The position numbers and the translations under genes were made by a program. Below the pieces are notes generated by a model. The model was not told the DNA's origin. It did not search any database and saw only the letters and a program-made list of their open reading frames with translations. From contig CDROCS010000023.1 in NCBI GenBank assembly GCA_977020255.1, forward strand, positions 124,001-188,000: a stretch of DNA of 64,000 nt. The letters run 5' to 3'. How positions within the stretch are numbered: the first letter of the stretch is position 1; every line of letters starts with the position of its first letter. This DNA comes from Obrimoposthia wandeli (lineage: Eukaryota). Below, piece by piece: positions 21,501 to 61,500 of this stretch.

Positions 21501-23765
21501 GTGTTAAAACAAAAGAACTTTTTAAATACTATGTCATAACGTTAACTTTAAAATCATGTCAATTAAAAAATTAATTGAGATTGACCTTCAGAAATCGAAT
21601 GAAAACACCCTTAATAATCCTAAATTTAAATACGCGCCAATCAAAATTGATGCATTTAAACAAAAAATAGCTTAAAATAGATGTACTATAGTACATAATG
21701 ACCTTCAAATGACCTTGACCTTAAAATATCATGTGTAGTCGGGAGAAATTTGACCTTGACCCAACATCTGACATAATTTTTTTTTAAAATTTCGTGCAAA
21801 TTTCAATATTTTTTTGAATTTTTCCTTGAGTCGAAGTCATCACTTCTCACTACTAGAGCTGAATACTGTGAAGCAAGACGAGAAATTTGCTCAGGATGCC
21901 CCTTCGCATGTTTCGAAATTGTCAAATTTGTCAATCTGGAAAACAATAATTTCAATGTCACGAAACGGCCGTCTTCCCTAGATCTGAATCCCATAAAAAT
22001 GTACAGGGATTACTCACACCACCTATTTATAAAAATGGTTCACAATATAATTCTAAGTTTGAGCCTGAAGGATATTATCAAACAGAGGGCTTCAATGAAC
22101 AGTATAATTCCATGAATTTGTAAAAAGGATATTCTACAAAAAATTAATGATGAAACAAATGTCTTAATGATGTTGTTCATTTACCTCTTTAGTATAATTC
22201 TAATGAATTTGTAAAAAGGATATTCTACTAAAAATTAATGATGAAACAAATGTCTTAATGATGTTGTTCATTTACCTCTTTAGTATTGTTCTAATTCAAT
22301 TATCATCAAAATTTATATACAAAATAAATATTAAATATCTTCAACATTCTTTTAAAAGTATTAAAATTCTTTCAATTTCTTTTACATAATTGCAAATTGT
22401 TGCATATACATTTGAACTTTAAACTTCAAATTTACCGTTTTTGTTGATTTTTGTGAAAAGTTTATGAATAAATTAAATACAATGCATTTTCAAGATAAGT
22501 TGTTATTTAGATATAATTAATTAAGAATGTAATTAATTGATTTTCTATGATTTATAATAAATTGTCCATCATTGAATTTCTATTTATATAATAGTTTGAG
22601 ATAGATAATACTTATAAATAGTTATTATCTTACGTGCTTCAAAATTTGTAGAAACGGCACTTTTCTGTCTATATATTTAAAAAGTGGCGATTTTTGTCAT
22701 TTACATTTGTCTAAAAAGGAAGATGTGGATGAAGGATTAGGTAAAACATCTAGCAAGGGTAATTAGGATGGGGAGACCACTTAAATGGAACCCAGATGAA
22801 GGACCCACCTGAAAGACGAGGCGACCCTCAGCAAGGAGGTAGGTGTCATTGAACAGCTCGAAAATATGCGAAGATGGCTGGTGGATGGTGCTGAGGATGC
22901 ACTTGCCTTTGCGCGCCAGCTTCTGTAGGATGACGATCACCTTCTCGGCCATCTTGGCGTCGAGGCCCGTGGTGGGTTCGTCGAGAAAGAGGATGGGAGG
23001 GTCCACGAGCAGCTCGCACGAGATCGAGAGTAGCTTCTTCTCGCTGCCAGCCAGGCCCTGCACCTTGGCAGACGTGTTGACGAAGTCATTGGCCACTTGC
23101 CCAAGACCCATCTCCGTGATCAACTGTTCCACCCGAGCCAACTTCTGCTGGCGACTGTACTGTTGACCCATGCGCAGAACCGCGTTGTAGATGAGATGCT
23201 CACGCACCTTCAAGCGGCCCCAGAACACGTCCATCTGTTGTACATACGCCGAGACTCCTTTGATGCTGCTGTGCATGACCTGCCCATTTACGCGCACATC
23301 GCCGTCCACACGTAGGCTGCCCAGATTCCGACACGTAATGATGTTCAACAGCGTCGACTTGCCCGCGCCACTAGCGCCCATAATTGCCGTCAGCTTCCCG
23401 CTCTGAACCACCCCACTCACGTCGAACAGCAGCTGTTTGAAGAGGCCCGTCTCCTTCACTCTTCCGAAGGCTCCCTTACCAAGTTCTGGCGCGAAACAGT
23501 TGATGTCGCTCCAGCTCACCGTCACTTTCTTCATGTCCGGAAACTCACCTTTCTTGCCGTCGAGAAGCTCGCTGAATGATAGATAACGGTCGGAGACACT
23601 CTCGATGAAGTTTCGGCTGTCCTTGGTCCTACTCTTTTTATTGCGATATGTTCCATAGTCCGTGCTATAGTGGATCGAGGAGGAGGAATAGTCACTGACT
23701 TCATTGAGATCAAATCGATCACTGTCCAACAGTGGAACTGACTCAATTTTCAAATTTCCACTCAT
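15502..23765 (-). CDS. ABCG-family (white/scarlet-like) half transporter
   Basis: Exon 1 is 23765-22809 (Walker A GASGAGKST, signature-like LAGSEKK, Walker B LFLDEPTTGLD, STIHQPS). Exon 2 starts at 17961 (GSREHALDFF..GFPCSENFNPADHF); its 3' end is uncertain, about 17614-17700. Exon 3 is 16431-15502 (ABC2 membrane domain, YLSWHRYAYE, stop). Confidence 0.93.
18206..18440 (+). repeat. Direct duplication of about 105 bp (period 130 bp)
   Basis: atgatgaagattagttattatt...gttttctgac at 18206-18310 and 18336-18440. Confidence 0.9.
20570..21220 (+). pseudogene. Decayed D/E-rich low-complexity gene relic with two 40-41-nt GT-AG mini-introns
   Basis: GTAAGT...TTTTAG segments at 20609-20649 and 20935-20974, each followed by GATGAAGAA-type repeats (DEEDEEDEED). 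AATAAA at 21213. Frames are broken. Confidence 0.4.
21830..22030 (+). mobile_element. Tc1-like transposase remnant
   Basis: RPSSLDLNPIK resembles the WPxxSPDLNPIE motif. Confidence 0.4.
22101..22286 (+). repeat. Tandem duplication, unit about 90 bp x2
   Basis: agtataattc...tttacctcttt repeated at 22101 and 22191. Confidence 0.9.
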
Positions 23766-42399: not shown

Positions 42400-43183
42400 A
42401 AATATATATATATATATTTACACATACACACAAACACAAATATCAGTATAACTATATATATATTATTATGTCCTTGACCTCATACACAGTATAAGCGATA
42501 TCTTATATAGAATTTGCACTGACACAACCACAGTATAAACTTAATCTCAAATAGAATTTTCACACACACCTACAAACACATACATTGTATAAAAAAATTA
42601 TTTATATCCTTATATATAATTTCCAAACACACAGACATATTATAAGTGATATCTTATATATAATTTTTATACACACATACACTTACATATAATAAAAATA
42701 ATTTATATATCCTTATATAGTATTTCCAAACACACACACATAGTATAAACGATATATTATATATAATTTGCACACACACATAGTTTAAACTATATATTAT
42801 GTATAATTTTCACACGCACATACACATACATATTATAAAAAAATATTTATGTATCCTTATATAGAATTTCCAAACACACATACACATACACATATTTAGT
42901 ATAAAAAATTATTTATATATCCCTTTATAGAATTTTCAAACACACACACACATATAATAAGTGATATCTTATATATAATTTTTACACACATACACTTACA
43001 TATAATAAAAATTATTTATATATCTTTATAAAAAATTTCCAAACACACACACATAGTATAAGCGATATCTTATATATAATTTGCACACACACGCACACAC
43101 AAAAATCTATACATAGTATAAAAAATTATTTATATCCATATATATAATTTCCAAACACACATACACATAATATAAGCGATATC
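42400..43183. repeat. AT/(CA)n compound satellite, unit about 40 bp
   Basis: Repeated ttatatataatttccaaacacacacacatagtataagcgatatc variants, ending exactly at the Polinton terminus. Confidence 0.85.
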
Positions 43184-43370
43184 AGTAGGTAGATGTGTCC
43201 GGTCTAATCCAGCCCCTCCCCCTTCCTTCGCTGATTAAAAAACAATGTTTATAAAAAAATACATATAAGATACAAATATTAAAAAAAATAAAACTGATTA
43301 TTAATTGCCAAATGAAAGAAACATAGAAAAACCGATTACAATTTATTACATGCAAAATGAAAGAAAAAAG

Positions 43371-43913
43371 TTAATACATAGGAATATGAGCACGTTCAAT
43401 TTTCCACATAGGCAACTTTGTTCCCATTTCATCTTTCTTGTAACCATAAAGTCGAATTGTTATAGTCCATTGCTTCCTTTTCGGAAACGCATCAACATCT
43501 ATTTCTCTTCCATACTCATCTAGAAATTCTGCATCGGCTCCTCGGATATAAAATTCATTCTTATTGAAAGTAAAATTTGGAACTGCCTTTTCAACTTTTT
43601 GTTTAAGATATTGAAAATCTGGTTTTTGAATACCTGATAGATAGTAGCTGAACTTTCTTCTTTCAATTGTCACAGGATTTACTAAAGCAATCAGTTGAGC
43701 CTTCTTCAAGAATCTAACTTTGTATTTGAAATATTGTTTCACTTCTTCATACATATCCTTATCCGATTCTTCAAACATTTCTTCGTCATCGCTAATACCC
43801 GTTGGCTATCGTCCATCATTGATAATTGTCTTTGATATGAATGCATTTATTGTGATTTGTCCTCCAATGGCGCATTCGTTTATACTAATTTGTAACAAAC
43901 ACATGAATCTCAT
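43371..43913 (-). pseudogene. Unknown Polinton protein of about 180 aa with one premature stop; beta-rich C-terminus, possibly SSB/OB-like
   Basis: ORF 43371-43778 extends in frame through a single TAG (about 43806) to an ATG at 43913. A fragment copy lies at about 58225-58340. The function is a guess. Confidence 0.55.
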
Positions 43914-43940
43914 TAGCTAATATAACTAAAGCATTGAATT

Positions 43941-44089
43941 TGATTGGACTAAATCGATATTAAAAATCAAATTTGATTGAAGAAATCTATCATCCAAATA
44001 TAGGTTTGCAAGATAATAACAAGAAACATGCAATGAAAAAGCAGGTTCAGACATATATAAAGAAGATTTTACAGAATAAAATTTCAGTC
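43941..44089 (+). promoter_or_regulatory. Core promoter of the TBP-like gene: CCAAT box, TATA box, initiator
   Basis: TGATTGG at 43941-43947, TATATAAAG at 44054-44062 and TCAGTC at 44084-44089 (A at 44086, 32 nt from the TATA start). ATG at 44092. Confidence 0.6.
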
Positions 44090-44091
44090 TA

Positions 44092-44591
44092 ATGAAACTC
44101 GTAAATATAAATTATAAGGGTAGAACAGAAGATGATGTTTCGTACTTACCATTCAATGAATGGAAGCCGAGACAATATGTAGAAAAGTTTGACAATTTCA
44201 CAGTTGTTATTTTTCCTACAGGTTAGTTTTTTATTTTATTTTCATATTGAATTCTTTAGGAAATTGTCGTGTTATGGGATGCAAAATACCAATGCTTGGG
44301 TTCAATTTACCATTTGGAATTCAAATCACCGCAATACAATCAATCACGATTTCGGCTAATCTCGGGAAACAGATAAATCTTTTTAAAACTGCAGAGAAAA
44401 TGAAAGAAGAATGCATGTTTGAACCAGAAATTTTTCCTGCTCTCAGTTATTTGAAGTTTAAACCGCTATGTGTAAATATATTTTCCAGTGGTAAAGTTAT
44501 GATATTGGGATTGAAAAATTTTGATTATCCAGACATTGTTGATTTGATTTTAGAAAATATATCTTATTACATCTTGTTATCTTTTCTATAA
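44092..44591 (+). CDS. TATA-binding-protein (TBP)-like protein, about 154 aa, two exons
   Basis: Exon 44092-44221, 38-nt GT-AG intron 44222-44259, exon 44260-44591 give an uninterrupted ORF. It has two TBP half-repeats: MKLVNI...TVVIFPTGNCRVMGCK and IQSITISANL...FEPEIFPALSY...CVNIFSSGKVMILGLK (compare TBP TALIFSSGKMVCTGAK and YEPELFPGLIY...LLIFVSGKVVLTGAK). Confidence 0.85.
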
Positions 44592-44619
44592 ACAAACCCG
44601 TTTAAACTTATTGTTTTGA

Positions 44620-44892
44620 ATGAATAATACTATAAATAGAGACAATGAAGTGTATCGTCTTGCCGACGAAATATTTTTGGGAAAAATTAGGGGTAAAGAA
44701 ATTTTATCAGAATTAAAAAATAATGATATAACAATAGATAACATTGAAATATTGGTTAGATCACACGTTATTCGAGAATTTAGAAATCGTACACAAATAA
44801 ATAAAATTATAGCCAAATATTCATTAATTATTTTTTGTATTTCATCTACAATAGCTCTAACATTGTACATTTCAATAAGGAAACTTCTATGA
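44620..44892 (+). CDS. Small protein (90 aa) with a C-terminal transmembrane helix
   Basis: Intact ORF between the TBP-like and ATPase genes. Hydrophobic YSLIIFCISSTIALTLYISI followed by RK. Confidence 0.6.
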   Translation: MNNTINRDNEVYRLADEIFLGKIRGKEILSELKNNDITIDNIEILVRSHVIREFRNRTQINKIIAKYSLIIFCISSTIALTLYISIRKLL

Positions 44893-44930
44893 TAATATAA
44901 ACAATATTAAAAAATGAAAGAGTATATGCA

Positions 44931-45578
44931 ATGGAGCTAAATAATAATGCTGTATTTCAAATAGTTGGCCCTAGTGGAAGTGGAAAGACACATTTCGTAT
45001 GTAAATTGTTGCAAAATGAATCTCTTTTCAAATCTAGTTTCAAAAATATTTATTGGCATCATGGTGGAGGAGGGGAAAGCGGATTAACCAAAACAGAAGT
45101 TTGCAAGTTGAATTGTATAAAATTTATTGAAGGATTTGATGCAAATTGGTGTGAAAGATTGAAAAAAGAAGATGTAATAATAATTGATGATTTGTATGAG
45201 GAGGCTAACAAGGAATCGGACTTTAATAATTTATTTACAAAGATTGCAAGACATCGTGAAGTAACAGTTATATTTATCACTCAGAATCTGTTTCACCAAG
45301 GAGGTCACCATAGAACAAGAAATCTTAATGTATATTACTTAGTTTTATTTAAAAATCCTAGAGATCAAACAGTTGTTGATTTTGTGGCCAGACAGGCATT
45401 TCCTCAAAATAAGAACTTTCTAGTTGATTCCTTCCACGATGCTGCTAAACAAGCACATGGGTATATATTTATTGACTTTACACAAGCTTGCCCAGATGAT
45501 TTACGTGTTTTAACCGACATATTTAATTCTAAGGGAGTAACTGTTTATAAACAAATAGAGAACAATTATAAAAAATAA
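44931..45578 (+). CDS. A32/FtsK-like genome-packaging ATPase
   Basis: Walker A GPSGSGKT, Walker B IIIDD, ARHREVTVIFITQ and YLVLFKNPRD, typical of Polinton ATPases. ORF intact, 215 aa. Confidence 0.92.
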   Translation: MELNNNAVFQIVGPSGSGKTHFVCKLLQNESLFKSSFKNIYWHHGGGGESGLTKTEVCKLNCIKFIEGFDANWCERLKKEDVIIIDDLYEEANKESDFNNLFTKIARHREVTVIFITQNLFHQGGHHRTRNLNVYYLVLFKNPRDQTVVDFVARQAFPQNKNFLVDSFHDAAKQAHGYIFIDFTQACPDDLRVLTDIFNSKGVTVYKQIENNYKK

Positions 45579-45757
45579 ATTCGCAATACCTTTTACAAAG
45601 TTGATAGTAAAACGTAAAGTAAAATCTAAAAAATCAAAAAAAAGAATCATTAAGAAAAAATAAGTGAAAAAATTAATCAAATCTGTAGTTAAAAATAAAA
45701 AAAAACTTAAATGGCTTCGAATATAAACAATATTTAAATTGAACCTTTTTTATTAAA

Positions 45758-46087
45758 ATGAAGAAAATACAAAGAAGCATACCCTATTTTAAAGCTTAAG
45801 TCAAAGCCTCTTCTAATACGAGAATGATTATTCTTAAAGTATTTCCATCTTTTGTTGTAGATGATTTATTGGAAGTTTTATATAATATAGTTTTGGGTCG
45901 AGTAAAAGTTGGAAATCGGAAAAATATATTAAAGAAATATAGAAAAACTCTTCTAGATATTGCTAATGTAAAAAGTTAAAAAAGGAAACGAAATATTATT
46001 CTTAAACAGAATGGTGGTTTCATAGGAGCTGTTATTCCAGTTGTTGCTTCAATTATCAGTAGTATTATAGCTGCGACACGTTCATAA
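45758..46087 (+). pseudogene. Small basic Polinton protein with an adenovirus pX/Mu-like C-terminus (two premature stops)
   Basis: MKKIQRSIP...LLEVLYNIVLG...KQNGGFIGAVIPVVASIISSII*, 110 codons in frame. A second, frameshifted copy lies at 54196-54480. Confidence 0.6.
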
Positions 46088-46173
46088 ACAATTATTTCTA
46101 AAATCAGCTAAAGATATAGGTGCTAGCCCTTCTTTACCTAAACTTAAATTTTCTTTCTATTCAAATTGTTGTA

Positions 46174-47372
46174 ATGGAGAAGATATGGTTCAATCCAAAA
46201 GATCCAATTGGCTACACAGGAGTTTCAAAATTAGCAAAAAGAACAAAACAAAATTACAAGAAAACGCAGAAATGGCTGAGCAACCAGTTAGCCTACAGTC
46301 TGAACAAACCGATGAGAAGAAGGTTTCCAACTAGAGCTTACAAAACCAGCGGTCCTAATAATTTATGGCAAATGGATTTGATGGATATGATCCTATATTC
46401 TTCCATTAATAAGGGATATCGATATATTTTAACATGTATTGATGGCTGAGCAACCAGTTAGCCTACAGTCTGAACAAACCGATGAGAAGAAGGTTTCCAA
46501 GTAGAGCTTACAAAACCAGCGGTCCTAATAATTTATGGCAAATGAATTTGAAGGATATGATCCCATATTCTTCCATTAATAAGGGATATCGATATATTTT
46601 AACATGTATTGATGTATTTAGCAGGTTTGCTCGTGCAATTCCAGTTAAAGCAAAGTCTTCAATAACTATGCTTGAAGCCATTAAAGAAATATTAAAAGAG
46701 GACATTCCACAAAATGTGCAAACTGATTTAGGAAAAGAATTTTATAATAAGCAAGTTCAATCATTATTTAAACAAAATAATATAAATCATTACTCTGTGT
46801 TTTCACAATACAAAGCAGCAGTAGTAGAAAGATTTAATCGTACTCTAAGAGATCGAATAAAAAAGTATTTCACAAAAGAAGGAAATAAAAAATGGATCCA
46901 AGTTTTACCTAAAATAATACATGCATATAATCACTCTGAACATAGAGGTCTCAAGGGAATGAGACCTGTTGATGTTACTAATAAAAACTCTAAGGAGATT
47001 TGGATGAACAGGAATAAAAAATAAAAAAATAAAAAAGCTAAATATAAGAAAAACGAAAATGTTCGAATTTCGAAAATTAGCTCTTCTCCATTTATTAAAA
47101 ACTTTGATCAGAATTGGAGCGATGACATATTTTGTATAAGTAAAATTGATCAAAAGAGTAATCCAATAATGTATACTATTAAAGATGCTGACAATAATAT
47201 CGTTCACGGTAAATTTTACAAGCAAGAACTACAAGTAATATCAAATAAACCTAGCGTTTTCCATATTCAAAAAATATTAAAATCTAAGGGTACAGGTAAA
47301 CATAAACAATACTTTGTTAAATGGCATGGTTATTCAGACCCAACTTGGATATCAGCATCTAATATAATATGA
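46174..47372 (+). pseudogene. Retroviral-type (rve) integrase with C-terminal chromodomain
   Basis: LWQMDL, CIDVFSRFA, VQTDLGKEF, AAVVERFNRTL, and chromodomain FHIQKILK...YFVKWHGYSDPTW. Disrupted by a 170-bp tandem duplication (46272-46441/46442-46611) and an in-frame TAA at 47022. Confidence 0.95.
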
Positions 47373-47728
47373 AGTCTATGTATATAGTTTTACCTAGTAA
47401 CGGATGTTCGAAGACTCAACCAGATAATTACGCTAGTAGCTTTATTATCGATTGGGAAAATCCTATAAATCTCCAATGAGAATGGGAAGCGGCTTTAACA
47501 GAATTTTCCTTTTATTATTCTCTAATTACTATCAGAAAAAACTCGCATATTTTGTTTACAAAAGAAGTTGATCATGAAAAATCAATTGAAGTTATGATTG
47601 GGTTTGATAGTAAAGGAAAATTCTATTACAATTGTATAGATAAAGAAGTGAAAGTAATATATGAAAAAAACAAAGTCATATTTAAAAATAGACTAAAACA
47701 TTTTTTAAAACCTATTCAAATTAGGTAA
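47369..47728 (+). pseudogene. Putative minor capsid (penton/PX-like) protein, N-terminal part only
   Basis: The start overlaps the integrase stop (ATGA). MYIVLPSNGCSKTQPDNYASSFII...*EWEAALTEF resembles the LPSN...P.N..S.F...G.WEVAL.E N-terminus I recall from this Polinton gene. One premature stop; truncated. Confidence 0.55.
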
Positions 47729-47838
47729 GGTCCATCCTAAAAAACGTATTGAAATAACAAATAAGTTAGAGTCTAGGTGCCATAGGGATCTAAAATTTTA
47801 AAAAACTAAACTAAAAAAAATCAAAAAATGAAAACCGT

Positions 47839-49135
47839 TTAAATTCTGAAGTGTCCATAAGCCAGGCTAGCGTTCTTTTCTACCCAAAAGCGTTTGTCGT
47901 CATTACTACTCAAAGCGATTTTGGTTGATTTATGGGAATACAGTTGATGGGCTCTTGAAATAAATCTAGTTTGCTCAACGCTTTCAATACACCCAGTATC
48001 ATAAACTTTCCGGTAGGCCTCATGTGTAAGATTGTTTCTTCCCACACCCTTTGCTATCATTGAACATGTATTATTAGATGCATGTAAACTGTAGCATTTA
48101 GGGCGTAGGAAAATACAATCATCATACGAAACCTGTCCCTCGCTTTCATCCTTAAATTTCCCTATAATATACTTTAAACTCATAGAATGTAGAGGATGGT
48201 TAGCGGGATATTTATGGGTATCTAGTAAGTTGTCCCTAAACATTGCTGGTAATAATTGATTATTTAAACTAACATTCCTACATTCTAAAAAGAAAGAGTC
48301 AGTGTCCCCTGCCACGATTTTGATCTCACAATTAAATTCTTGTCGGTATTTCTCCAATTCTATGTATTGAAGCTCATACATTCTGAGTTTAGAAATGTCT
48401 AAAACCGTTTGACCTATATAACTCGGTCGATCGAGACAAATACTCTGTTTTTCTAATAACACTGCTACCAAGTCATCTGCAATTGTAAAACTACGCTTGA
48501 AGTTGTACTTGCTAGTATATGTTATTAGTTTACGCTCATCATTGCAAAACCATAGACAAATACGTTTCCGCAAGTCCTCTACAGTTTTTCCAAAGAGGCT
48601 ATTACTTTTTAACTTGTAAAAATCTCAATCGAATTTGCCAGTGGCCAAATTACGTTTTCTTGAATTCTTGTCAATATAGTCTTTAAACACAAAGTTTTGA
48701 CTGAAGCTTATAGTACGATGAATTCGAGTAACTTTTGCTCCCAACTTTAAGTAGAATTGAAGAAGCCGCCAATGCACAACATAATTCAACTTGTCTTCAT
48801 GGGTTAACAATAATTTCTTCACCTTTGAATTAGGAGGGCATTGATGAACAGGCGCTACTGGAAGATCATCTAATTTATCATGCACATTGGGAGGGATTTT
48901 TAAATCAACCAAAGGTTTTCGCAAATTTATACGGAAAAGTCCCCTTATCGTTAACCGAAGCTGGGAACACTGACTGTGTAATTGGCTATGCATTTAAAGA
49001 TGCCGTTAAATTTTTTAAAGACCCGCTCAAAAACTGTAGAGAATCTATGAATCTTAAACTGCAGAATTCAGTATATGCAGTTAAAGATAAATATTTCTCT
49101 GAAGTTTGAGGTATACATGAAATTTCCCAAGAGAA
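47839..49135 (-). pseudogene. Protein-primed DNA polymerase B (family A copy 1), internally deleted
   Basis: FIDSLQFLSGSL..KGTFPYKF is joined at about 48912 to VDLKIPP; then YVVHWRLL, motif B KLKSNSLFGKT, DRPSYIGQTVLDISKLRMY, motif C IVAGDTDS, IGKFKDE, LRPKCY, ALSSNDDKR. Exo III and motif A are missing. Confidence 0.95.
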
Positions 49136-49139
49136 ATTT

Positions 49140-49820
49140 CATTAAAACGATTGTAGAACGATATTTCCTGAATAAAAAATAAAAATAATATATATATATT
49201 AAAAATAAAATATATAATTACAATTTACAAAAATAAAAAAATACCTAATGATGGCAATCCAAGTTGAGCTGGAATGAAGTCCTCTTCATTGATGGAATCC
49301 ATCCAGCTGTCGTCCGTTGACTCGACGAAATCGGATTCCTCGATGGTCTTCAACCATGAGTTATCGCTCCACTGAGGCTACTCCATCTCGAAATCTGACT
49401 GGGTGATATTTCGCATCCAGTCATTGTTTGAGAATTGGGTTGCTGGTGCCAACTCCTCAAAATATTCCTCGGAGATGTCGTTCATCCACTCATTGTTTGA
49501 CATTAGAGTGGATGGAGCAACAGCAGAATCAGGAGCCGGGAGAGAAGGACCAATGGCAGGACCATAAACTGGTAGACTGACTGCTACTGGAATTGGAGGT
49601 GGAGCTGGAGCGGCCTGCGAATCGCGCACCAATTGGACGATATCCCTCTTCTTGTTGTTGGCCGTGAAACACGATAGGTGAGCTCGATGTTCACTGAAGA
49701 ATTCTCGAAACTCCTTCTCCTCCATTGTTCTGCAGAAGGGGCAGACGAAGAAGTGAACACCTTGAGACTTTGTCCGGTAGTATGCAGACATTGTCTCCAT
49801 GCAGGACTCTCCTCCTGCTT
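49140..49820 (-). pseudogene. Cys/His (zinc-finger-like) protein with a Pro-rich linker and four acidic W-x-x-I-x-x-x-x-F repeats
   Basis: HFFVCPFCRTMEEKEFREFFSEHRAHLSCF; then NNEWMNDISEEYF, NNDWMRNITQSDF, (TAG at 49378) DNSWLKTIEESDF, DDSWMDSINEEDF. Possible terminal intron at about 49244-49168. A second copy lies at 56494-56730. Confidence 0.6.
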
Positions 49821-50048
49821 TTAAAGAGAAGGATTGTTTATCTATTATAGCTTGAAAAAATAATTTTATTCCTCCAATTAAAGAGAAGGATTGTTTATCT
49901 GTTATTGGTTGAAAAATTAATTTTATTCCTCCAATTAAAGAGAAGGATTGTTTATCTATTATAGGTTGAAAAAATAATTTTATTCCTCCAATTAAAGAGA
50001 AGGATTGTTTATCTGTTATTGGTTGAAAAAATAATTTTATTCCTCCAA
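49821..50048. repeat. Tandem array of 4 x 57 bp
   Basis: Units start at 49821, 49878, 49935 and 49992. Degenerate units occur at about 50090 and 56820-57000. Confidence 0.95.
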
Positions 50049-50114
50049 ACAAAAGGCTTATTTGTAAATAATTGTAAAATTTTAATAATGAATTCCTCCA
50101 ATTAGAATAATTGT

Positions 50115-50603
50115 TTATCTACATGTCAAGTAATAATAAGAAAGACTTAAACATTTTTTATATGCGCAATGGTCACCATGATTACGATATGGACAGCAAA
50201 TATTTTGTGGAATATTTAATAGATGATCACGTGAAATATTTTAAGTATTCAACCTGAATTTAGGAAAATATTTTTTTAACGTCTTATATTTTTTGCCATC
50301 CATTTCATCTCAAACATAAAAAATTCCATTTTCAATATCAAAATTAGATTTAATAGTATCGAAAATACATATTTCACAAAAAGCCTTATGTCCTTCTTTC
50401 CATTTTAATAAATGGAAATATTTAGTTAGATATAAATTAGTAAATTTTTTCTTATAATCTAAACTTTTAAATGGGATATCTATATAAAATATGAAATGCA
50501 AAGGATGAAAAACGTCGCATACATCCATAATACATAATTCTTTTATAATATAATCCCCTTTTTTGTTAATGAAAGCCTCAAAATCTATGATATATTCCTG
50601 CAT
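50115..50603 (-). pseudogene. Stand-alone DEDD/DnaQ-like 3'-5' exonuclease with a C-terminal Cys/His cluster (two premature stops)
   Basis: MQEYIIDFEAF...YIIKELCI (Exo I D-x-E), HFIF, HLLKWKEG, FYV*DEMDGKK, CCPYRNHGDHCAYKKC. The copy at 56995-57210 has the C-terminal half without the stops. Confidence 0.6.
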
Positions 50604-50751
50604 AATTACCCAAATTTGTAGCAAATCCCGTTGTTTATAACGAAAAACTATTATTCAAAAATTTATTAAAATGACGAGCTAGTATTTAGACAATTTTATA
50701 TTTAGACAATTTTATAACATAATCAATAAAGACAAAATAATAATCAAAAAT

Positions 50752-51054
50752 TTATTTTTTTGTGGAAGGACTCTCTTCCGGTTTAATCTGGAGGATTCGA
50801 ACATCCTCCGTCTCTTCGCTTCTTTTTTCCTCCACCTTCTTTTTTTCCATTTCGATTTTCTTGTTCCACTCCACAACCCGACATCGTTCTGCTAGCCGCC
50901 TGTCCTGAATCTCCACCCGACGATTCCACTCGATCGCGACAGCAGTATATAAATTCTGGTTGAGGATCCTCTTTCGTAAGTCTCCTTTCTTCTCATTTAT
51001 TCTTATGTTTGCCTCGATCTTCGTCACCAAACTTTGCAATTTAATAAATTCCAT
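50752..51054 (-). CDS. Small charged coiled-coil protein (100 aa)
   Basis: Intact ORF with an upstream TATATATATAG. An inverted decayed copy lies at about 57765-57990. Confidence 0.55.
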   Translation of the reverse strand: MEFIKLQSLVTKIEANIRINEKKGDLRKRILNQNLYTAVAIEWNRRVEIQDRRLAERCRVVEWNKKIEMEKKKVEEKRSEETEDVRILQIKPEESPSTKK

Positions 51055-51346
51055 TTTTTAATTATGACGATGTTAATAAATTTGAACCTATATATATAAA
51101 TTTAAGATATTTTTAATCCAATCACAAGCAATTAAAATATATTTATCAAATGAAAGTTTAATAAATATATAACTAATCATTGCTTTTATATTTAATCCTA
51201 AAATTTTTTAATTATTCCTTAACAATCCATTCACATTTGAATAAGTTAACTTTATTTTTAATCTTGTTATTTTAATAAACTTAAGTAGTATATTTTAATA
51301 TTACTAAATTCTAAAATAAATAATAATAAAAAGACAACACAAGAAA

Positions 51347-53453
51347 CTAATGTTTAATAATTATATTTTTGAACATTTTTACGAAGTCATCATTGGGATC
51401 ATCCGGGTCGTAATCCCTCCGACTTAGTTTTATAGGAGAGAGCGGTACAGGTTCCTTCTTCTTTGGCCGGCCCGGTTTCTTTTTCGGCTTCACCGGTTGC
51501 TGTACAGCAATTGTCCTTCCCTCAGGTTTTGGCAATAGTTGCCGCAACGTTTTGGGAGGAGGTGCAGCCGATGTTGATGGCCCGGACATAGAAGCAGTAG
51601 CCTTCCTCTTCCGCGGAGCTTTCTTCTGTTTCTCCTCCTTCTCACGCTGAAGCTGGCGTGAGACGGCATCCTGTTGCCCACGCGAATCTGGAAGCATTGC
51701 CGGTGTATCCAGTTCCGCCAGGAATTCGTCCAAACCAGCGTCATCCCAGGCCCTCTTCAAGTTTTGGCTGGTTGTTGGACGAGGAGAAGCAGTCTCATGC
51801 AGACGTGGTTGACTCGAGGGCGGACTTATCTCGATCGGCGAGACTGGGATCCTCTCGTATAAAATTGGACCGTCGTCCACTGGAGGAGGGAGAATCTCCT
51901 GCTGGCCAATCACCGCCTCAGAATAATGGCCAATTGAGGTGCGAATTTTTCTCGAGCGCCTCGTCTTCTTCACCTCTGCCCGCTTTGTCCTTTTCTTAGG
52001 GAAAGGAGTAACTTCTCCCCAAGTCTCCTCAATTATCCGGACAGGTTCCTGCAAATGAAAACAAAAATAAAATTTCAAATAAATTTTATTTAATTAAAAA
52101 AATATTTAAAATACCTAAAAATTACCTCAATAATCTTATACGGACGTTTTTCCGGCCGCTCAATCGTTACTTCACTCGAATTGAGCAGACAGGATTTCGC
52201 CTTTCTAAGACGCCATGTCTTCCGTACAGCAGCCTGCTTCGTTCGCTTCTGCGGGAAAGGATAAATTTTGGCCCATGTATCCTCAGTTAATATTATTGGT
52301 TCCAGCAACAAAAAAACCTTATAAAATTTAAACATATAAATAATTTACCTCGATGACGGGTAGATTAGCCTGTTTCACCAACTTGGCATTCTTCCGATGG
52401 ACCGTATTGGTTTTGACCCGATGACGTCGAAGTTTCTTAACTGCCGCTTGCTTCCTATCGACAGGTAGTCTCCGAGATGCCTCCTCCCAAATTTCCTCCA
52501 CCAATTCAGCTTCCTAAGTGAATAATTAAATAAATTTACTAATTTATAATAATATACCTCAATTTTAGCCGGAGTCGGTAGGTATCTCTGATCAATCCTG
52601 GGATCATCCTGGCTACATTGACTCGCCAAGTATTGCGGTTCAATTAGCCTCTCAATCGTGGTCACTGACGGTGCCAAATCCAGTTGCAGTTTCTGAAAAT
52701 AAAATTAAAAAACATTTTAAATAAATGATTTCTAACCTCATTCGTCGCCTTTATTCTCCTAACAGGACGTATCGGAGATTGTGGCCTTCTGAATGGATCA
52801 GGCACTGTATTGTCGGGTATCGGAGTCGGAGTTGTAGAGGGAGTGAGACCATCCCATTCGTCGGTGAACAGATGCCACTCATCTTCATCCATTTCTGCAA
52901 CCATGGACTCGTTGGCTCCTGGGGCTCCGATACTTGGCTGTATCCACTCCTCCTCCCCATCCGACGGAACGTCATCAGTAAACAGCTCCTCGTCTGAGTC
53001 TGGTGCCAGTATTATCTCCGGTTGAGACAGCGGGATCAATTTCCAGGGGCATTTGATTGCCGCCTCAAAATTGTCAAAGAGATTGGATCTCCTTGCTGCT
53101 ACTGCTGAAGTTGCCGGACGATTGGCTTCTGTGTTCAGCCTGGGAGTACAGTCTTCCCAATTCTCTATCGATTCCTGACTAGTCAGATCGATATATTGGG
53201 ATCTCTGTACCCCACCTCGCACGCTCATATGTTCTTCTCTTGGAGTTGAGCTGGCCAATGGCGGTTCTTCTAGCAACAGTTGGGCTCTTGCTGCTGCTTC
53301 TCCTTCGTCTCCTTCACTCACCACCGACGAGTCTTGACTAAGTAAGTCAATGTACTGCGCCGGTGGTGGCGTTCGCTGCTGTACTGGAGAGAGATCTCCA
53401 TACAGCTGAACCTCCGTCTCTTCATCCAAATCGACGTTGTTGAAATTTTACAT
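51347..53453 (-). pseudogene. Five-exon, about 630-aa intrinsically disordered nuclear-type protein (SIM-like, NLS and AT-hook-like motifs)
   Basis: Exons 53453-52737, 52692-52558, 52513-52349, 52302-52126 and 52048-51347. All introns are phase 0 (44, 44, 46, 77 nt) and give one continuous frame. Codon 2 is TAA and the intron-3 acceptor reads TG. TATATAAG at 53516-53509. Confidence 0.7.
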
Positions 53454-53850
53454 TCTTGCTTCTTGATTAATGATATTTGATTTATGAAAAATAATGAAAA
53501 GAGGTTTCCTTATATACAAAAAGAATAGACTAACCCTCTTTTGTCGTCCAATGAGAGTGGGTTAATCAAATAATTTATTTGAAAATCAGTAGGCTTTTCT
53601 CAATTTTTTAACTATGTTTGAATGCTGGAATGTCATTGGATAAAACATATTTTATTCGAAAATATAACTATTTTCTTAAGATTTTGTTGCTTAAGTTTAA
53701 CGTCCAATGAAAACGTATTATTCTAAGAATTTATGGTATTTTCTTAAATTTTGTTGATGTTTGAATACATGTATATCTTTGGATTTAAAATAGTAATCTT
53801 TTCTTGACTGTACATGTTTGTATGGTATAAAAAATTCATGAACCTATTTA

Positions 53851-53873
53851 AGGTCAAGTTAAGGTCATGACCT
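53851..53873 (+). promoter_or_regulatory. Composite nuclear-receptor half-site cluster (AGGTCA DR5 plus IR0)
   Basis: AGGTCA-agtta-AGGTCATGACCT, about 290 bp inside the right terminus and upstream of the five-exon gene. Confidence 0.4.
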
Positions 53874-54159
53874 GTTCGCGAGCCTGTATTTATTACTCGT
53901 TGATCCACCGCGAGCCCGGAGGGCACGCTTTGGCCAATATTTTGGCGACTCAGAACCTTAATCAAAATTTTTGGAGCATTATGAGATTTTTAAATTTAAA
54001 GGGTGTTATATGGAGTTAATTATTTTTTTGAGTGTTTGGGAGGGGGGGTAGAAAGTCTTTCTACACACCTACACGAAATTTCACTCCACACACATGCACG
54101 GTTTTAAAGGACAGTAGGGGGGAGGGGAGTGTGGATTAGACCGGACACATCCACCTACT

Positions 54160-57100
54160 CATCTACAATAGCTTACAATAGCTTAATTTTTAAAATGAAG
54201 AAAATACAAAGAAGCATACCCTGTTTTAAAGCTTTGATCAAAGTCCCTTCTCATAAGAGAATGATTATTCTTAAAGCATTTCCATCTTTTGTTGTAGATG
54301 ATTTATTGGAAGTTTTGTATAATATATAGTTTTGGGTCGAGTAAAAGTTGGAAAACGGAAAAATATATTAAAGAAATATAGAAAAACTCTTCTAGATATT
54401 GCTAATGTAAAAAGTAAAAAAGGAAACGAAATATTATTCTTAAACAGAATGGTGGTTTCATAATAGCTGTTATTCTAGTTGTGATGTTTGTTGACAAAAG
54501 TCATTCCACCACGTATACCATAATCATACATTTGATACATCGCAGGATCTTGCAGTAACTCTTGCAGTTGCTCATGAAAGACCGGGTAAACTAAAGAAAT
54601 GCATGGGATCTAGCCCATCCTCTGCTAAAGATTTTACACGAAAGGACTCAAACACATCAGCTAAAAGATAAATGTCTAACTTCATATAATAAAGCATATA
54701 ATCTAGAAGATTTCGACCATTATTCTCCTAAAATGTACGGGCCTCATTATAGTCTTGAAGACTTACACCCTCAAATTCAGTTATGGGTGGGATTTCTGTA
54801 GTAGTTTCCAAATCTGCACAGGTTTTCGCAAATTTATACGGAAAAATTCCCTTATCATTAACCGAAGCTGGGAACACTGACTGTGTAGTTGGCCATGCAT
54901 TTAAAGATGCCGTTAAATATTTTAAAGACCCGCTCAAAAACTGCAGAGAATCTATGAATCTTAAACTGCAGAATTCAGTATATGCAGTTAAAGATAAATT
55001 TTTCTCAGAAGTTTGAGGTATACATGAAATTTCCCAATAGCTTAATTTACCCAAAGCGTATTTAAATATATGATGCAAATCATATCCTTTGAGGTTATGT
55101 AACACGATGGGAATTCGTGGTATTTTAGGGAGACGACGGCCAATGTTACAGAGGTTGCACGCTGCTCCCAAGTATCGCCCCGTAACATGATCGTGATCTC
55201 TGACTAACTTAGATTGGGTTCCACACAAATAACATAATCTACAAGAATTAAAATTAACCCAGTCTATGCCTGTCATGATCATTGCTTGATGAGCATTAAG
55301 ATCATACCACGGTTTGATAATTGTTGTTCCTAATTCTTTTCAAAAGCTATTCTAACCTAAATGGTAAGCAAAGAATCATGGCCATCTACTCGAACTCGAA
55401 GAGGTGGATTAGTCCAGGTATATCTAACTACTTGCACGGTATATTTTCATAAATGCAATAAAAACCGCTTGTTTTAAAGAAGTATCTGAAATTAGATAAG
55501 ATTATATCCTCCTGATAACTCATCGAATTCTCACAACAAATAGCATGACTCATTTATATTTCCGGACAAAAACTACGAGTATCTAATTTAATAATAGGGG
55601 GCCTTACTTAATAGTCGTCAAAGGCAGCAATACAATCAGGAATTTATCCGATTACACCCGAAGTTTGGCTGGGGGTATGACCTCCAAGGGTTTTATAACC
55701 CCTTAAAATTAATTATTTTGTCAATGATCATTCAAACAGTAGCAATGTGTTGGTGGGCCTCCAATGGTTCAAATCTCTGGAGAATGGCTAGAAGTTTGCT
55801 TTTTAAAATAAGTTGAACAACATTTACACACCACCATTTTACTAGAAATTTATTTCAATTAAATTCTTTTATGGTTTCTTTTGCAATTTAAAAACCATTT
55901 TAAATGTAGATTGAGAAAATTTTGGAACACTCTCTATAAATGTGTGTATTGCATAACTGTCAAAAAGAATTTTTTTTTAAGAGTTATTTAGTTTATTATA
56001 CATTAACCAGTGGCCTAAAATATTTCAATGGGTCTTTGAAAACTTCTTAATTTGTCAGAGTTAAGGCCTGGTTGGGTTCTGTTGAGAAATTAGGGGTTGA
56101 AATTTAAAAACCAAATAAAAAATTCCTCGTAATTTGGGATTTATCCCATTCTCATCGTCATGACACCACATATTCAGCGAATTTACCAAATAGACAGTTA
56201 GGGCACTGGTTTGTGTGGTATTTACAAGAAATTATGACTCAACAAAAATGTTCATTATATATTTGAAAATTAAATCGAATGAATATTTTACCACAAAGAA
56301 AACTTTGCAAATAATTTATATTCTTTTCCCTACCTGTGCCATATACATTAAATTACATTTTCTTATAAAGCAGCATTGTTTTGCTGATTCCATGGATCAT
56401 TTTGGATCCCGATTGGGAACGGATTAAATCATACCCTTGAACCAATTAACACAAAACTAAAACACATCTGACTTTATTTCGCGAGTCTAAATATCAAATA
56501 TTTGCAGTGAAGCAGGACAAGTAAGCTTGATGTTCATCGAAGAAGTCTCGAAACTCCTTCTCCTCCATAGTTCTGCAGAATGTGCAGATGAAGTACACAT
56601 GCCCATGAGACTTTGTCCGATAGTAGACGGACATTACCGCCATGCAGGAAACTCCGTAACAGGTTACACGTAATCTGAAATAATAAATATTAATAAATAA
56701 ACAAAAAATAAAGGTTCTTACAATATTCATTATTTTAAAATTCGGGGATTTATATGAAAAAGGTGTTTGTTTATATACTAAATTTTATGCACACATGCTC
56801 TTTTCTTATTGGATGACAATATTGAATTTATTCCTCCACTGAGAAGGGTTGTTTATCTGTTATTGGTTGATAATATTATTTTTAATATATTTTATTCCTC
56901 CAATTAAAAGGTTTGTTCATTTGGATTTAGATATTTTGTTATTGGTTGAAAATGTTATTTTTATATATTGTATTTCTCCATTTAGAAGTATTGTTTATCT
57001 ACATGTCAAGTAATAATAAGATAGACTTAAACACTTTTTATATTGGCAATGATCACCATGATCACGATATGGACAGCAAATATTCTGTGGAATTTTTAAT

Positions 57101-57445
57101 GGATGATCACGGGAAATATTTGAGGTATTCAATCTCAAATTTGGAAAATAATTTTTTAAAGTCTTAAACTTTTTGCCATCCATTTCATCTAAAACATAAA
57201 AAATCCATAGAATCCTCTCGTACAAAATTGGCCCGTCGTCCACTGGAGATGGGAGATACTCCTATCGGCCAATCACCACATCTCTAGAATTGAGCATTGC
57301 GGTGTTACATTTTCTTACAATTTCTCCCCATTTCACCTCAATTATCTGGACTAGTTTCTGTAAAAAATTAATAAAATTTAAGCGTATAAAAAATTTAAAA
57401 TAATAATAGAGGGTGGATTAGACCAGACATATCCACATACATACC
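54160..57445. mobile_element. Polinton family A copy 2 (scrambled and deleted, same orientation as copy 1)
   Basis: Contains a pX-like copy (+), the pPolB N-terminal part (-), a ZnF gene copy (-), a fused spliced-gene/exonuclease segment (-), and a degenerate right terminus (gtggattagaccagacatatccac) at about 57412-57440. Confidence 0.75.
54480..55430 (-). pseudogene. pPolB N-terminal region with an endonuclease VII-like His-Me finger and exonuclease motifs
   Basis: CYLCG...VRDHDHVTGRYLGAACNLCN, IPIVLHNLKGYDLHHI (Exo II), FIDSLQFL, KGIFPY; after a frameshift, KLDIYLLADVFESFR..EDGLDPMHFFSLPGLS (Exo III). Confidence 0.92.
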
Positions 57446-57637
57446 GAGAATATTTGTTCTTTAAATATTCTGTATACAGGTATAAATATATGTTGTGTTT
57501 GTAGAATCTAACTATTTTTGTAAAATCATTAAATTCTTTAACGGACAATTGAATTTTTAATGATCTGCCGGGTAACAATTAAAGGGCGCTAATAAAAAAC
57601 ATGAATTTTCAGTTGAATCTAATTAGTGTTTATTATC

Positions 57638-58350
57638 AGTAGGTGGATGTTTCCGGTCTAATCCACACCCCTCCCCCTGTCTTTTAAACCCGTGCATGTG
57701 TGTGGAGTGTGGACTATATCCTAGTTTTTTCGCCCCTCCTCCCACCGCCCACCGCCCACCGTACAGAATTTGTATACTGCTGTCGCGACCGAGTGGAATC
57801 GTCAAGATAGGCGACTAACAGAACGACGTCGGGTCGTGGAGTAGAATAAGAAGATCGAAATGGAAAAGAAGAAGGTGGAGGAAAAAAATAAGAGAATAGA
57901 TGGAGGATCATCGGCGCGCAGCAAGAAAGAGAATCCTCCAGATTAAACCGGAAGGGGGTGCTTCTACAAAAAAGGAAAATTTTGATTATTATTTTGTAAA
58001 TATATTAGTAAAGGATCAGATAGACGGATCGCGTTTTCAAGAATTTATTTGATTTAAGAATATATATTCAGAGTAAGAGATCGTTTATCAAAAACCAGAT
58101 TCCACAAATATCGATTGATTCAAGGAATGGAAATGAATTAGAAGTCAAACATTTTTGTAGTTTAACAATTGTTTTTAGTGAACTTGAAAAAATAGAGAAA
58201 TAGAAAGTACTAGAGAAATAATTCACATATGTAGCTTTGTTCCAATTTCACCTTTCTTGTAATCATAAAGCCGAATTGTTACAGTCCATTGCTTCTTTAT
58301 CGGAAACGCATCAACATATATTTCTCTTCCAGATTCATCTAAAAATGATG
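57638..58350 (+). mobile_element. Polinton family A copy 3 remnant (inverted right end)
   Basis: Starts AGTAGGTGGATGTTTCCGGTCTAATCCACAC with right-end subterminal sequence, then the coiled-coil gene copy on + and a fragment of the 43371-43913 gene. Confidence 0.75.
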
Positions 58351-58506
58351 CATCATATACTTTAATACGCGTTAGGAACTTTAAGATCATGGGAATAATC
58401 TTTTATACCTCAAAATGCGGAGAAATATTTATCACATGCCAACTTTATGTGGATGTATGATGTGGAAGAGTTGAATAAGTTGATGACAGATGTTAGCTAT
58501 TTGGTT

Positions 58507-61500
58507 AGTAGGTAGAAGGATGGAGTCTAGACCACTTGACCCCCCCCCCTTGTGCGCACACAAATGTTAAAGGATTTTTCAACATAAGGGTGTCACACCA
58601 TAAGGGTGTCTTGCCACACCATAAGGGTATATGTTGCCTCACCATAGAAATGTCACACCATGAAGGTATATGTTGACTCACCATAAGGGTGTCACACCAT
58701 AAGGGTATATGTTGCCTCACCATAAGGGTCTGGCTCAGAAAGGTTAAGATAGGGGGGAGGGGGGAAGGGTCAAGTGATCTAGTCTCCACCCTTCTTTGGT
58801 ATACCACTATGGTCGTCCATAATTCAAAGGGTCAAGGTCAGTTTTGACTTGAAGGTTTTAAGGTATGATCATGACCGTCTATGGTTGGCCATCACATCTA
58901 AAGGGTTGTGGTCGTCCATAAATCAAAGGGTCAGACTCAGTTTTGACTTGAAACTTTGAAGGTATAATTAAGGTCAACTATGGTTGGCCATCACATCTAA
59001 AGGGTTGTGGTCGTCCATAGGTCAAATGGTCGGACTAAAAAAAAATTAAAATATCAAGGTTTTAGTACATGGTTGTAATCATCTTTAGAAGACGAAGTCA
59101 CCCATAAAGTATGACTGTCCATAAATCAAAGGGTCGAGCTATAGACCAAATCAAGTTTTAAATGTCAAGGTTTTAATACATGGTTGGAATCATCTTTAGA
59201 AGACGAATTCATCCATATATGTATGGTCGTCCATAGATGAAGGGTTAAAGAAAAGTTGGAATTTCATAGTTTTAAGTACATGGTTGTATTTGTCAACATA
59301 TTACGAGTTTAATCATGTAAAAATTTTATGGTCGTTCACAAGGTAAGGGTTAGATTTGGCATAAATTAAGAAATTATATAGTATTCAATCAATTATTCTA
59401 TGTGAAAGTTCACTATTATCAGTTAAGGAATGTATTACGTAATCACACACACACTATTCTATGTGAAAATTAAGGCTAAAGTTCACTCTTATCAGTTAAG
59501 GAATGTGGCTTTTAACACACATACTATTCTATGTGAAAATTTAGATCAAATATACTCTTAAGGTTATTCATACTTTAAGAGGTCCTGGTGAAAAAATAAA
59601 AATATTTTTTAAATTTAAATTTGTGCCAAATTATTTTGTTAGATTTTGATAAAGTTAAACAAATTTAATTTATAGAATTTTTTTTTTTAAAAATATTAAA
59701 GTAACATTATTTAAAATAAATATTAAGGAAAATGTTAATAAACTCNNNNNNNNNNNNNNNNNNNNNNNNNNNNNNNNNNNNNNNNNNNNNNNNNNNNNNN
59801 NNNNNNNNNNNNNNNNNNNNNNNNNNNNNNNNNNNNNNNNNNNNNNNNNNNNNNNNNNNNNNNNNNNNNNNNNNNNNNNNNNNNNNNNNNNNNNNNNNNN
59901 NNNNNNNNNNNNNNNNNNNNNNNNNNNNNNNNNNNNNNNNNNNNNNNNNNNNNNNNNNNNNNNNNNNNNNNNNNNNNNNNNNNNNNNNNNNNNNNNNNNN
60001 NNNNNNNNNNNNNNNNNNNNNNNNNNNNNNNNNNNNNNNNNNNNNNNCGCAAATTTTTATCCATTTTATTTATGTAATTAAACAATTCCTGGTGGAAAAT
60101 AAAAATTACTTGTAATTTTGTTTTCTTCAAAATAATAATTTAAATTTGCGCCAATTTAATTTGTTAGATATTAATAAAGTTAAACAAATTTTAATTTAAC
60201 AAGTTTTTAAATATTAAAGTACCAACACATCTATCAATCAATTATTCTATGTGCAAGTTCACTCTTATTAGTTAAGGAATGTATTACGTAATCATACACA
60301 CACTATTCTATGTGAAAATTTAGTCTAAAGTTCACTCTTATCAGTTAAGGAATGTGGTTTTTAACACACACACTATTCTATGTGAAAGTTTAGATCAAAA
60401 TTTTTTCCTAGGCTTATACATCTATAGAATTATGATAAAATTTCTTTAAATAACTTAAATTATATATTAAAATAAGAAAGAAGTCAGAGAATAATACAAA
60501 ATTAAACACATTTATTATGTAATTTCATAATATCATCTTCAAACTTAAGTGAATAACATTTACAAAGTAAGAAAGTCCATTCTTTATACATTCTTTTCGT
60601 TTCAATGACTAAGTTACAACAGAAAAAAAAACAAAACACTAAGTTTAACGCTATGAATGAAAATTAGTAAAATATTAATTTATTTGAATATTTGAATGAT
60701 AGTTTGAATAAATGAGAGTTAGATTGAATGTAAATGAATACAAGTATGAATGCAAGTATGAATGTAATTTACAAGTAAGAGTCTTAGCAAGTGAATGTAA
60801 TTTTTAAAAAAAAATAAGAGTGTCGATAGTTTGATTGAATACAAGTGTAATTTAGACTAAAAGTAAATTAAAATAGAGTTTTCGTTGAATAAATTATAGT
60901 TAGATTGAATGTAAATGAATGCAAGTATGAATACAAGTGAATGCAAATACTAGTAAGAGTCTTAGCAAATGAATGTAATTGGGGAAAAAAAATAAGAGTG
61001 TCGATAGTTTGATTGAATGCGAGTGTAATTAGACTATAAGTAAATTAAAATAGAGTTTTCGTATGAATAAAGTTATGTTAAGTTACAGTTAGATTAATAA
61101 CAAGTAATCAACTATAAGAAGCAGTGATATTGAAGTATGTTAAAAGTTAGAACGACTAAGTTACAGCAAGATTAATAGAAAACAACACTAAGTTTGAAGG
61201 TATGAATGAAAATTAGTAAAATATTAATGTATTTGAATGTAATTGAATGATAGTTTGAATAAATTACAGTTAGATTGAATGTAAATGAATGCAAGTATGA
61301 TTGAATGCTGTTACAAGTACAAGTAAGAAAGAATACGACTGCAAGTACGAATGTCAATTATGAATGAAAATTAGTAAATATATTAATGAATTTGAATGCT
61401 AGTTTAAATATGCGAGAGTTAGAATGAATGTAAGTGAATGCAAGTATGAATGCAAATACAAGTAAGAATCTTTGCAAGTGAATCTAAAAATGCAAGTGAG

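Follow-up and report, generated by a model that had tools for sequence, protein, structure and literature searches.

On the minus strand of the window, the 64,000-nucleotide stretch of Obrimoposthia wandeli DNA analyzed here, lies a five-exon gene that comes first in a Polinton (Maverick) family and reads inward from the element end. Its status as first gene follows because similarity among the copies breaks off at one common terminus above it, where the shared DNA of 10 regions also ends. Exons and junctions (Table 1) were taken from a six-frame translation of 51250-53650 and a reading of the splice junctions. All four introns are phase 0, none has a length that is a multiple of three, and their GC content is 0.11-0.17 versus 0.45-0.51 in the exons. 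Introns of 44-77 nt are of spliceable size in this host, since an intron of ~40 nt occurs in a host SUMO gene. A sequence-only reading of the window had proposed that four in-frame introns join what otherwise appear as separate open reading frames. This proposal is borne out by exact coordinates, uniform phase, conserved splice sites and frame-specific selection, and every peptide quoted in its favor is present in the exon translations. The window copy itself is broken by two lesions that the sequence-only reading did not name: its codon-2 stop is common to 3 of 30 close copies, and its third acceptor has lost the AG. Annotation based on open reading frames misses spliced genes of this kind.

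Table 1. Features of the five-exon gene and of the element around it, in window coordinates.
Feature	Position	Strand	Description
Element terminus, 5'-AGTAG...	54110..54159	(-)	Copies stop matching here; AGTAG at 54159, 706 nt above ATG
TATATAA box	53510..53516	(-)	63 nt above ATG; kept in 30/30 A, 21/22 B, 10/12 C
Five-exon gene, whole span	53453-51347	(-)	631 codons/residues; ATG 53453-53451, stop 51349-51347
Exon 1, 239 codons	52737..53453	(-)	Acidic, Pro-rich; twin YIDL(L/T)SQ, acidic-aromatic repeats; codon-2 stop in window copy
Intron 1, 44 nt	52693..52736	(-)	GT-AG, phase 0; 46 nt in subfamilies B and C
Exon 2, 45 codons	52558..52692	(-)	Unrelated to repeated module
Intron 2, 44 nt	52514..52557	(-)	GT-AG, phase 0; 45 nt in most C copies
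Exon 3, 55 codons	52349..52513	(-)	Distant copy of acidic-Trp/basic module
Intron 3, 46 nt	52303..52348	(-)	Phase 0; non-canonical acceptor in window copy only (1/30)
Exon 4, 59 codons	52126..52302	(-)	Module copy
Intron 4, 77 nt	52049..52125	(-)	GT-AG, phase 0
Exon 5, 233 codons + stop	51347..52048	(-)	Module copy, predicted helices, PRKRK, KKPGRPKKK, acidic C-terminal tail
Downstream genes, same arm	47839..51057	(-)	~100-aa basic coiled ORF, ~170-aa ORF, zinc-finger-like exon, protein-primed PolB fragment
Other arm of degraded Polinton	43184..47728	(+)	TBP-like ORF, A32-like ATPase, rve integrase with chromodomain

The Polinton family carrying this gene is a high-copy family with many copies in the genome. 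A DNA search of the organism's own 1.35-Gb genome returned 5456 candidates, a figure that is not a copy number, and the best 40, which were scored, are all 94-100% identical. Thirty loci fetched as a sample of subfamily A have canonical nucleotides at each of the eight splice dinucleotides in 29-30 of 30 copies, keep the ATG in 28 and the stop in 30, and retain an unbroken frame together with all sites in five. Divergence within subfamily A is 1.4-2.8% for introns and 1.9-3.4% for exons; because divergence in the introns does not exceed that in the exons, these copies are too young for a selection test. Subfamilies B and C were reached via two diverged pieces in the flanks. Of 90 loci, the 80 that covered at least 1300 nt were aligned and 10 were dropped; with one duplicate and six intermediates excluded, the groups comprise 30 (A), 28 (B) and 15 (C) copies. 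Splice dinucleotides are canonical in 26-27 of 27-28 copies in B and in 12-14 of 14-15 copies in C.

Column-wise counts put dN/dS between subfamilies at 0.17 for A-B (Fisher p 7e-21 over 609 codons), at 0.25 for A-C and at 0.29 for B-C. Third positions account for 77 of the 120 A-B differences, pN is lower than pS in each of the five exons, and the commonest codons of the exon frame contain zero stops. The gene frame has 0 stops and a dN/dS 95% interval of 0.11-0.29; the other five frames have 12-45 stops, and among them a low ratio appears only in the antisense frame that shares the same wobble positions. Insertions fixed in exons measure 21, 9 or 51, 6, 3 and 3 nt, subfamily C has an exon 3 of 153 nt, and intron indels between subfamilies measure 1-3 nt. 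Stops within subfamilies number 32, 75 and 60, an accumulation expected from decay after insertion. Judged by these substitution patterns, the five-exon gene is under purifying selection between the three subfamilies. Splice sites and frames, the features on which the earlier reading had staked its model, are both conserved in A, B and C. Given the frame-specific selection, the contrast between exon and intron indels and the canonical splice ends in the subfamilies, the gene model is strongly supported from genomic DNA as that of a gene real at the family level.

That the gene sits inside a mobile element, as had been proposed, is supported by the content of the element. It carries a protein-primed family B polymerase (PolB; PF03175, E 1.4e-06 in the window and 3.1e-28 in a flanked copy), a retroviral-like integrase (PF00665, E 5.4e-12) with a chromodomain behind it, an A32-like packaging ATPase (PF04665, E 1.6e-06) and AG-starting terminal inverted repeats, features that identify it as a Polinton. 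The terminus has an inverted match of 28 nt with the other end, near 43184. When checked for a 6-bp target-site duplication, the flanks of the two ends of the window element, which is rearranged, differ. In ten flanked 20-kb regions the shared DNA begins just above the five-exon gene, which is followed in order by the ~100-aa ORF, the ~170-aa ORF, the zinc-finger-like exon and PolB, while putative capsid genes and the integrase face them from the opposite arm. We take ORFs of ~415 aa and ~300-350 aa to be the capsid genes from their general likeness; they lie at the expected capsid position and have no Pfam or PDB match. No protease ORF was recognized in the element.

The element at 43180-58600 is a rearranged composite in which PolB is split and pieces are duplicated (45750/54187, 48910/54817 and 46272/46442), with an older diverged fragment at 56500-58000. 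A single-repeat TBP-like ORF lies at 44193-44591 (PF00352, E 5.9e-12), and a look-alike occurs in a second Polinton family (L144, L152). The N-terminal part of PolB, found at 54728-55339 and in region L098, bears an Endonuclease VII/HNH-like domain (PF02945), as it does in both families. The gene of the PolB arm also looks spliced, at 49100-49800 and in two of the ten regions, those that were read (L107, L109): a zinc-finger-like exon is followed by an AT-rich GT-AG intron, a short exon, a second intron of ~45 nt, an Ala/Ser/Thr-rich exon and PolB. Four acidic Trp repeats, for example NNEWMNDISEE, close the zinc-finger-like exon (49290-49500) and recall in style the acidic-aromatic stretches of exon 1.

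The second Polinton family (L143-L154) is young, with copies ~97% identical and core genes all on one strand. There a single ORF of ~800 aa covers both the zinc-finger-like part and PolB, and the family also carries a BIR-RING (IAP-like) gene and a dual-specificity phosphatase. Six of its regions of 20 kb contain no homolog of the five-exon gene; since this active-looking family lacks it, Polintons in this genome can do without the gene. A repeated run at L093:1-6130 and L150:5050-10000, consisting of a 690-aa ORF that includes a dual-specificity phosphatase, ORFs of unknown kind and a RING finger, possibly represents the terminal part of a third family of elements. Host sequence is present in the window as ABC-transporter exons (ABC_tran, ABC2_membrane) on the minus strand at 15502-23765. 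Elsewhere in the genome, tandem divergent ubiquitin-like units with ~270-nt spacing, each with its own short open frame (G000:C2592, C2050, C1456, C4682, C1351), suggest intron-separated polyubiquitin-like genes. The nearest relatives of the host SUMO are those of Macrostomum and Trichobilharzia, at 79%, which makes a flatworm host likely.

Exons 3-5 had been described as paralogous modules. Exon 4 aligns without gaps to the first 54 residues of exon 5 (0/5000 shuffles), and exon 3 is likewise related to the start of exon 5 (0/5000), but exon 3 matches exon 4 weakly (139/5000), so paralogy holds well for the pairs that include exon 5 and loosely for the remaining pair. Compared within each copy, exons 4 and 5 give a pS of 0.63 and a pN of 0.25 (33 codons, n=75). 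These values indicate that exon 4 and the start of exon 5 arose by a duplication long ago and have since been constrained at the protein level, exon 3 being a more distant copy. The shuffles and the pS and pN values together uphold the idea that the gene grew by duplication of phase-0 exon modules. In most copies the modules start with GAA and finish with GAG, and a phase-0 unit with such ends could therefore repeat freely. Neither exon 2 nor the end of exon 1 qualifies as a further copy, since both are unrelated to the module in the alignment and shuffle comparison. A difference in exon number across copies, a comparison suggested by the earlier reading, did not materialize: there are no true four- or six-exon forms among 110 loci. 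Four short exon 3-exon 5 gaps among these loci were rejected as four-exon variants, and at the two short-gap loci without a following module exon 4 is still present, the deletions lying inside exon 5. Because exon number is constant among the copies examined, the duplication predates all three subfamilies. Between introns, only introns 1 and 4 scored for similarity (13/2000 shuffles), a result on which we do not rely.

The encoded protein appears to be an orphan. Pfam searches with all five exons gave nothing above the cutoff and one sub-cutoff match only; a PDB sequence search at E 10 returned nothing, the ESM Atlas contained no homolog (best score 0.77, not usable), and a search of 1.84 billion representatives found none. 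An exon-1 alignment likewise found no homolog among longer proteins or in IMG/VR, and exon 5 found none in the library of longer proteins. AlphaFold models were computed for exons 1 and 5 with 13 close natural copies each as input. The exon 1 model is all coil (pLDDT 46.7); that of exon 5 combines coil with four short helices, including residues 93-113, 123-142 and 220-230 (pLDDT 56.8). Low model confidence does not amount to proof of disorder, because AlphaFold had just 13 close sequences. The protein is nevertheless likely disordered according to these models, and the earlier description of a disordered protein stands as a prediction from low-confidence coil on shallow input. Composition is split, exon 1 being acidic (20% D+E) and exons 3-5 basic (20-25% K+R). 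Exon 1 contains acidic-aromatic repeats (F[IT]DEW, AWDDAGLDEFLAEL, DDFVKMF), which we take to resemble activation-domain patches, and the basic runs PRKRK and KKPGRPKKK are presumably better read as NLS-like. No exon matches LxCxE, CR1, PxDLS, RING or RGRP, and paired CxxC is absent from the exon translations.

Exon 1 contains two SIM-like cores, a combination that arises in 2/20000 shuffles of that exon; the two are not independent, because they are duplicates of each other. YIDLL is kept in 29/30 copies of A, 21/23 of B and 7/11 of C, and YIDLT in 28/30, 22/26 and 6/11. Relative to exon-1 5-mers they stand above the 90th percentile in B (0.80) and between the 75th and 90th in C, a conservation only modestly above background, and uncorrected for CpG content, because the whole protein is well conserved. 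The cores are followed by SQDSS and SQESIENWED, acidic or phosphorylatable residues within the region predicted as coil. SQ dipeptides number 8 versus 2.35 expected (13/10000 shuffles, in a test chosen post hoc), with one directly behind each core; for [ST]Q combined the figure is 568/10000. VIDLT with an acidic C-terminal flank is described as a high-affinity SIM of type b (PMC3901395), and a phosphoserine adjoining the SIM core is described as raising affinity (PMC12751080). The proposal of SUMO-interacting motifs survives in part: the IDLT/IDLL core is present, the twins are unusually well kept and their flanks are acidic and Ser-containing, but the first core position is Y instead of V/I, and YIDL at both sites also fits the LIR/YxxL pattern, [WFY]xx[LIV]. 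By sequence likeness, the twin YIDL(L/T)SQ motifs resemble SUMO-binding motifs, and the protein is a candidate SUMO binder.

Two other motif assignments fared worse. The C-terminus had been read as AT-hook-like, which does not hold up. The core of an AT-hook is RGRP, whereas the core here is PGRP, and no AT-hook Pfam match was obtained at E 0.05. In shuffled exon 5, GRP occurs at a chance-level frequency of 2182/20000 and basic-flanked GRP in 203/20000; the motif is kept in 26/30 copies of A, 11/20 of B and 5/10 of C, which is near background and no better than the average 5-mer. Mimicry of the histone H3 tail was the other candidate. Exon 5 residues 143-151 (51610-51625), KAPRK..AT, agree with residues 14-22 of host histone H3 at 7/9 positions (1/400 global and 3/400 local shuffles), but this was the best of 20 comparisons and is weak after correction, and the motif is kept at the background rate only. 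Only the window copy shows a likeness between exon 4 and H3 1-7. We retain the H3 match as a weak lead only.

Accessory genes in Polintons and intron-bearing cargo at their ends are already known; what is new here is the orphan, predicted disordered and exon-duplicated form. Polinton genes are usually described as intronless, and intact vertebrate Mavericks are reported in PMC8097293 to have no introns; introner insertions are described in dinoflagellate elements (PMC12166617). Nematode Mavericks are described as carrying high-GC, intron-bearing cargo beside the left terminal repeat, namely WASP proteases and KRMA kinases (10.1101/2022.07.12.499685). The five-exon gene likewise neighbors a terminal repeat, exceeds its surroundings in GC and has predicted spliceosomal introns; it is thus end-proximal, GC-rich and intron-bearing as that cargo is. 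The nematode cargo, however, is described as folded enzymes with relatives across species, and no cross-species homolog of the five-exon gene was found in public protein sets. As in the adintovirus Oncoid genes, outlined in PMC8502044 as motif-defined accessory genes, the gene lies upstream of PolB and has short linear motifs; unlike them it lacks LxCxE, CR1 and paired CxxC, and has introns and SIM-like twins instead. VANC of Arabidopsis VANDAL transposons is, similarly, a transposon-encoded accessory protein with a proposed anti-silencing action on its own family, but it belongs to another element class and kingdom, and its sequence-specific DNA binding is reported as shown (PMC10398659, PMC5735166). 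Tandem SIM-like motifs in a predicted disordered region recall HSV-1 ICP0 and the cellular RNF4 (PMC4907222, PMC3901395), with a counter-silencing role as analogy; unlike those SUMO-targeted ligases, the five-exon gene has no RING in any exon. A literature search covering titles and abstract starts, with most subscription papers, Repbase and supplements outside its scope, found no such gene described, and passages searched in 10.1101/2023.08.22.554363 and 10.64898/2026.10.13.758929 contained nothing comparable.

The gene also invites comparison with a familiar viral regulator. Adenovirus E1A lies first in from the end of its genome, has a TATA promoter, is spliced and encodes a disordered motif hub. 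The five-exon gene resembles E1A, whose features are listed in part in PMC8502044, in end position, TATA box, predicted splicing and a predicted disordered hub. It differs in having no sequence likeness to E1A, in lacking LxCxE, the C4 zinc finger and PxDLS, and in being much longer. The protein is a member of neither the E1A nor the ICP0 family, and the term 'immediate-early-like', used in the earlier reading, is an analogy drawn from position and composition only.

Position, TATA box, predicted splicing, predicted disorder and the division into acidic and basic parts point to an early nuclear motif hub. We tentatively favor, as plausible though short of probable, an early disordered nuclear regulator of E1A/ICP0-like character that would bind SUMO and so likely loosen host silencing of the element. 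Host RNA polymerase II would transcribe the gene early from the terminal promoter, and the host spliceosome would remove the introns. The basic modules, together with PRKRK and KKPGRPKKK, would bring the protein to the nucleus and to chromatin, where the twin YIDL(L/T)SQ motifs, with Ser/acidic tails that are possibly phosphorylated, would bind SUMO on silencing complexes while the acidic-aromatic stretches recruit transcription machinery. The binding of SUMO would in turn relieve the silencing. As no RING is encoded, the protein would be at most a SUMO decoy or adaptor and not a ligase. Planarian Polintons are reported to be repressed by nuclear PIWI with H3K9me3 (PMC8532177), nuclear PIWI silencing in Drosophila is reported to need SUMO-dependent recruitment of SetDB1 (10.1101/533091), and ICP0 is reported to counter SUMO-based restriction of herpesvirus genomes (PMC4907222). 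By this analogy, SUMO-dependent silencing would be the likeliest target, the SUMO step of piRNA silencing in flatworms being extrapolated from Drosophila. A more elaborate form of the proposal, which we regard as unlikely, makes the protein an immediate-early counter-silencing decoy: phospho-tunable tandem SIMs, each followed by an SQ site, would soak up SUMO from the piRNA/SetDB1 route while the exon-duplicated basic modules and the H3-tail-like KAPRK..AT hold the decoy on chromatin, and the family would have become rich in introns, as its host is, as far as the polymerase arm.

A somewhat unlikely alternative is a disordered motif hub whose YIDL twins bind a partner other than SUMO (Atg8/LC3, a YxxL adaptor, a kinase or a co-activator), the protein then acting as a plain acidic transactivator or as a modulator of trafficking or autophagy. 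The fit of both sites to [WFY]xx[LIV], the acidic-aromatic repeats, which we assume to be activation-domain-like, and the TBP-like protein encoded by the same element all speak for such a hub; its autophagy version is opposed by strong basic NLS-like motifs, which favor the nucleus over autophagosomes. The D-L-T/S-acidic run, moreover, closely fits the SIM type b as described in PMC3901395. An alternative that we hold to be improbable treats the protein as a DNA-binding core or condensing protein of a particle or replication intermediate, similar to adenovirus protein VII, with the three basic modules of exons 3-5 wrapping DNA. The K+R content of exons 3-5 and the repetition of one module would suit this role, but the gene lies in the PolB arm beside the terminus and away from the putative capsid genes, a large acidic half belongs to its 631 residues, its four introns and TATA promoter suit an early gene, and it is absent from the second Polinton family.

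Quite unlikely, in our view, is the idea that this is a captured host cargo gene comparable to WASP/KRMA, with a selfish or host-related role and no part in regulating the element. It has the same end position, GC contrast and host-sized introns as the nematode Maverick cargo described in 10.1101/2022.07.12.499685. No protein library searched contains a cellular homolog, however, and the gene has resided stably and under selection across three subfamilies. The neighboring PolB-arm gene, in the two of ten regions read, has GT-AG introns as well, which argues that introns are a trait of this Polinton family. That the ORF pieces are unspliced, or the region non-coding, is very improbable: the finding that subfamily A introns have diverged no further than the exons would agree with it, but frame-specific purifying selection acts in each of the five exons, exon indels are triplets while intron lengths and indels are not, and canonical ends occur in all subfamilies.

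Selection has preserved the gene over at least three waves of spread. Should the SUMO link fail, a well-supported but ordinary accessory gene would remain. As regards the way in which Polintons switch on against silencing, this orphan at the element end, with its four introns of host size, exon duplication and testable motifs, is a concrete candidate for a Polinton analogue of E1A/ICP0, situated in an animal group, likely the flatworms, where nuclear PIWI silencing of Polintons has already been studied.
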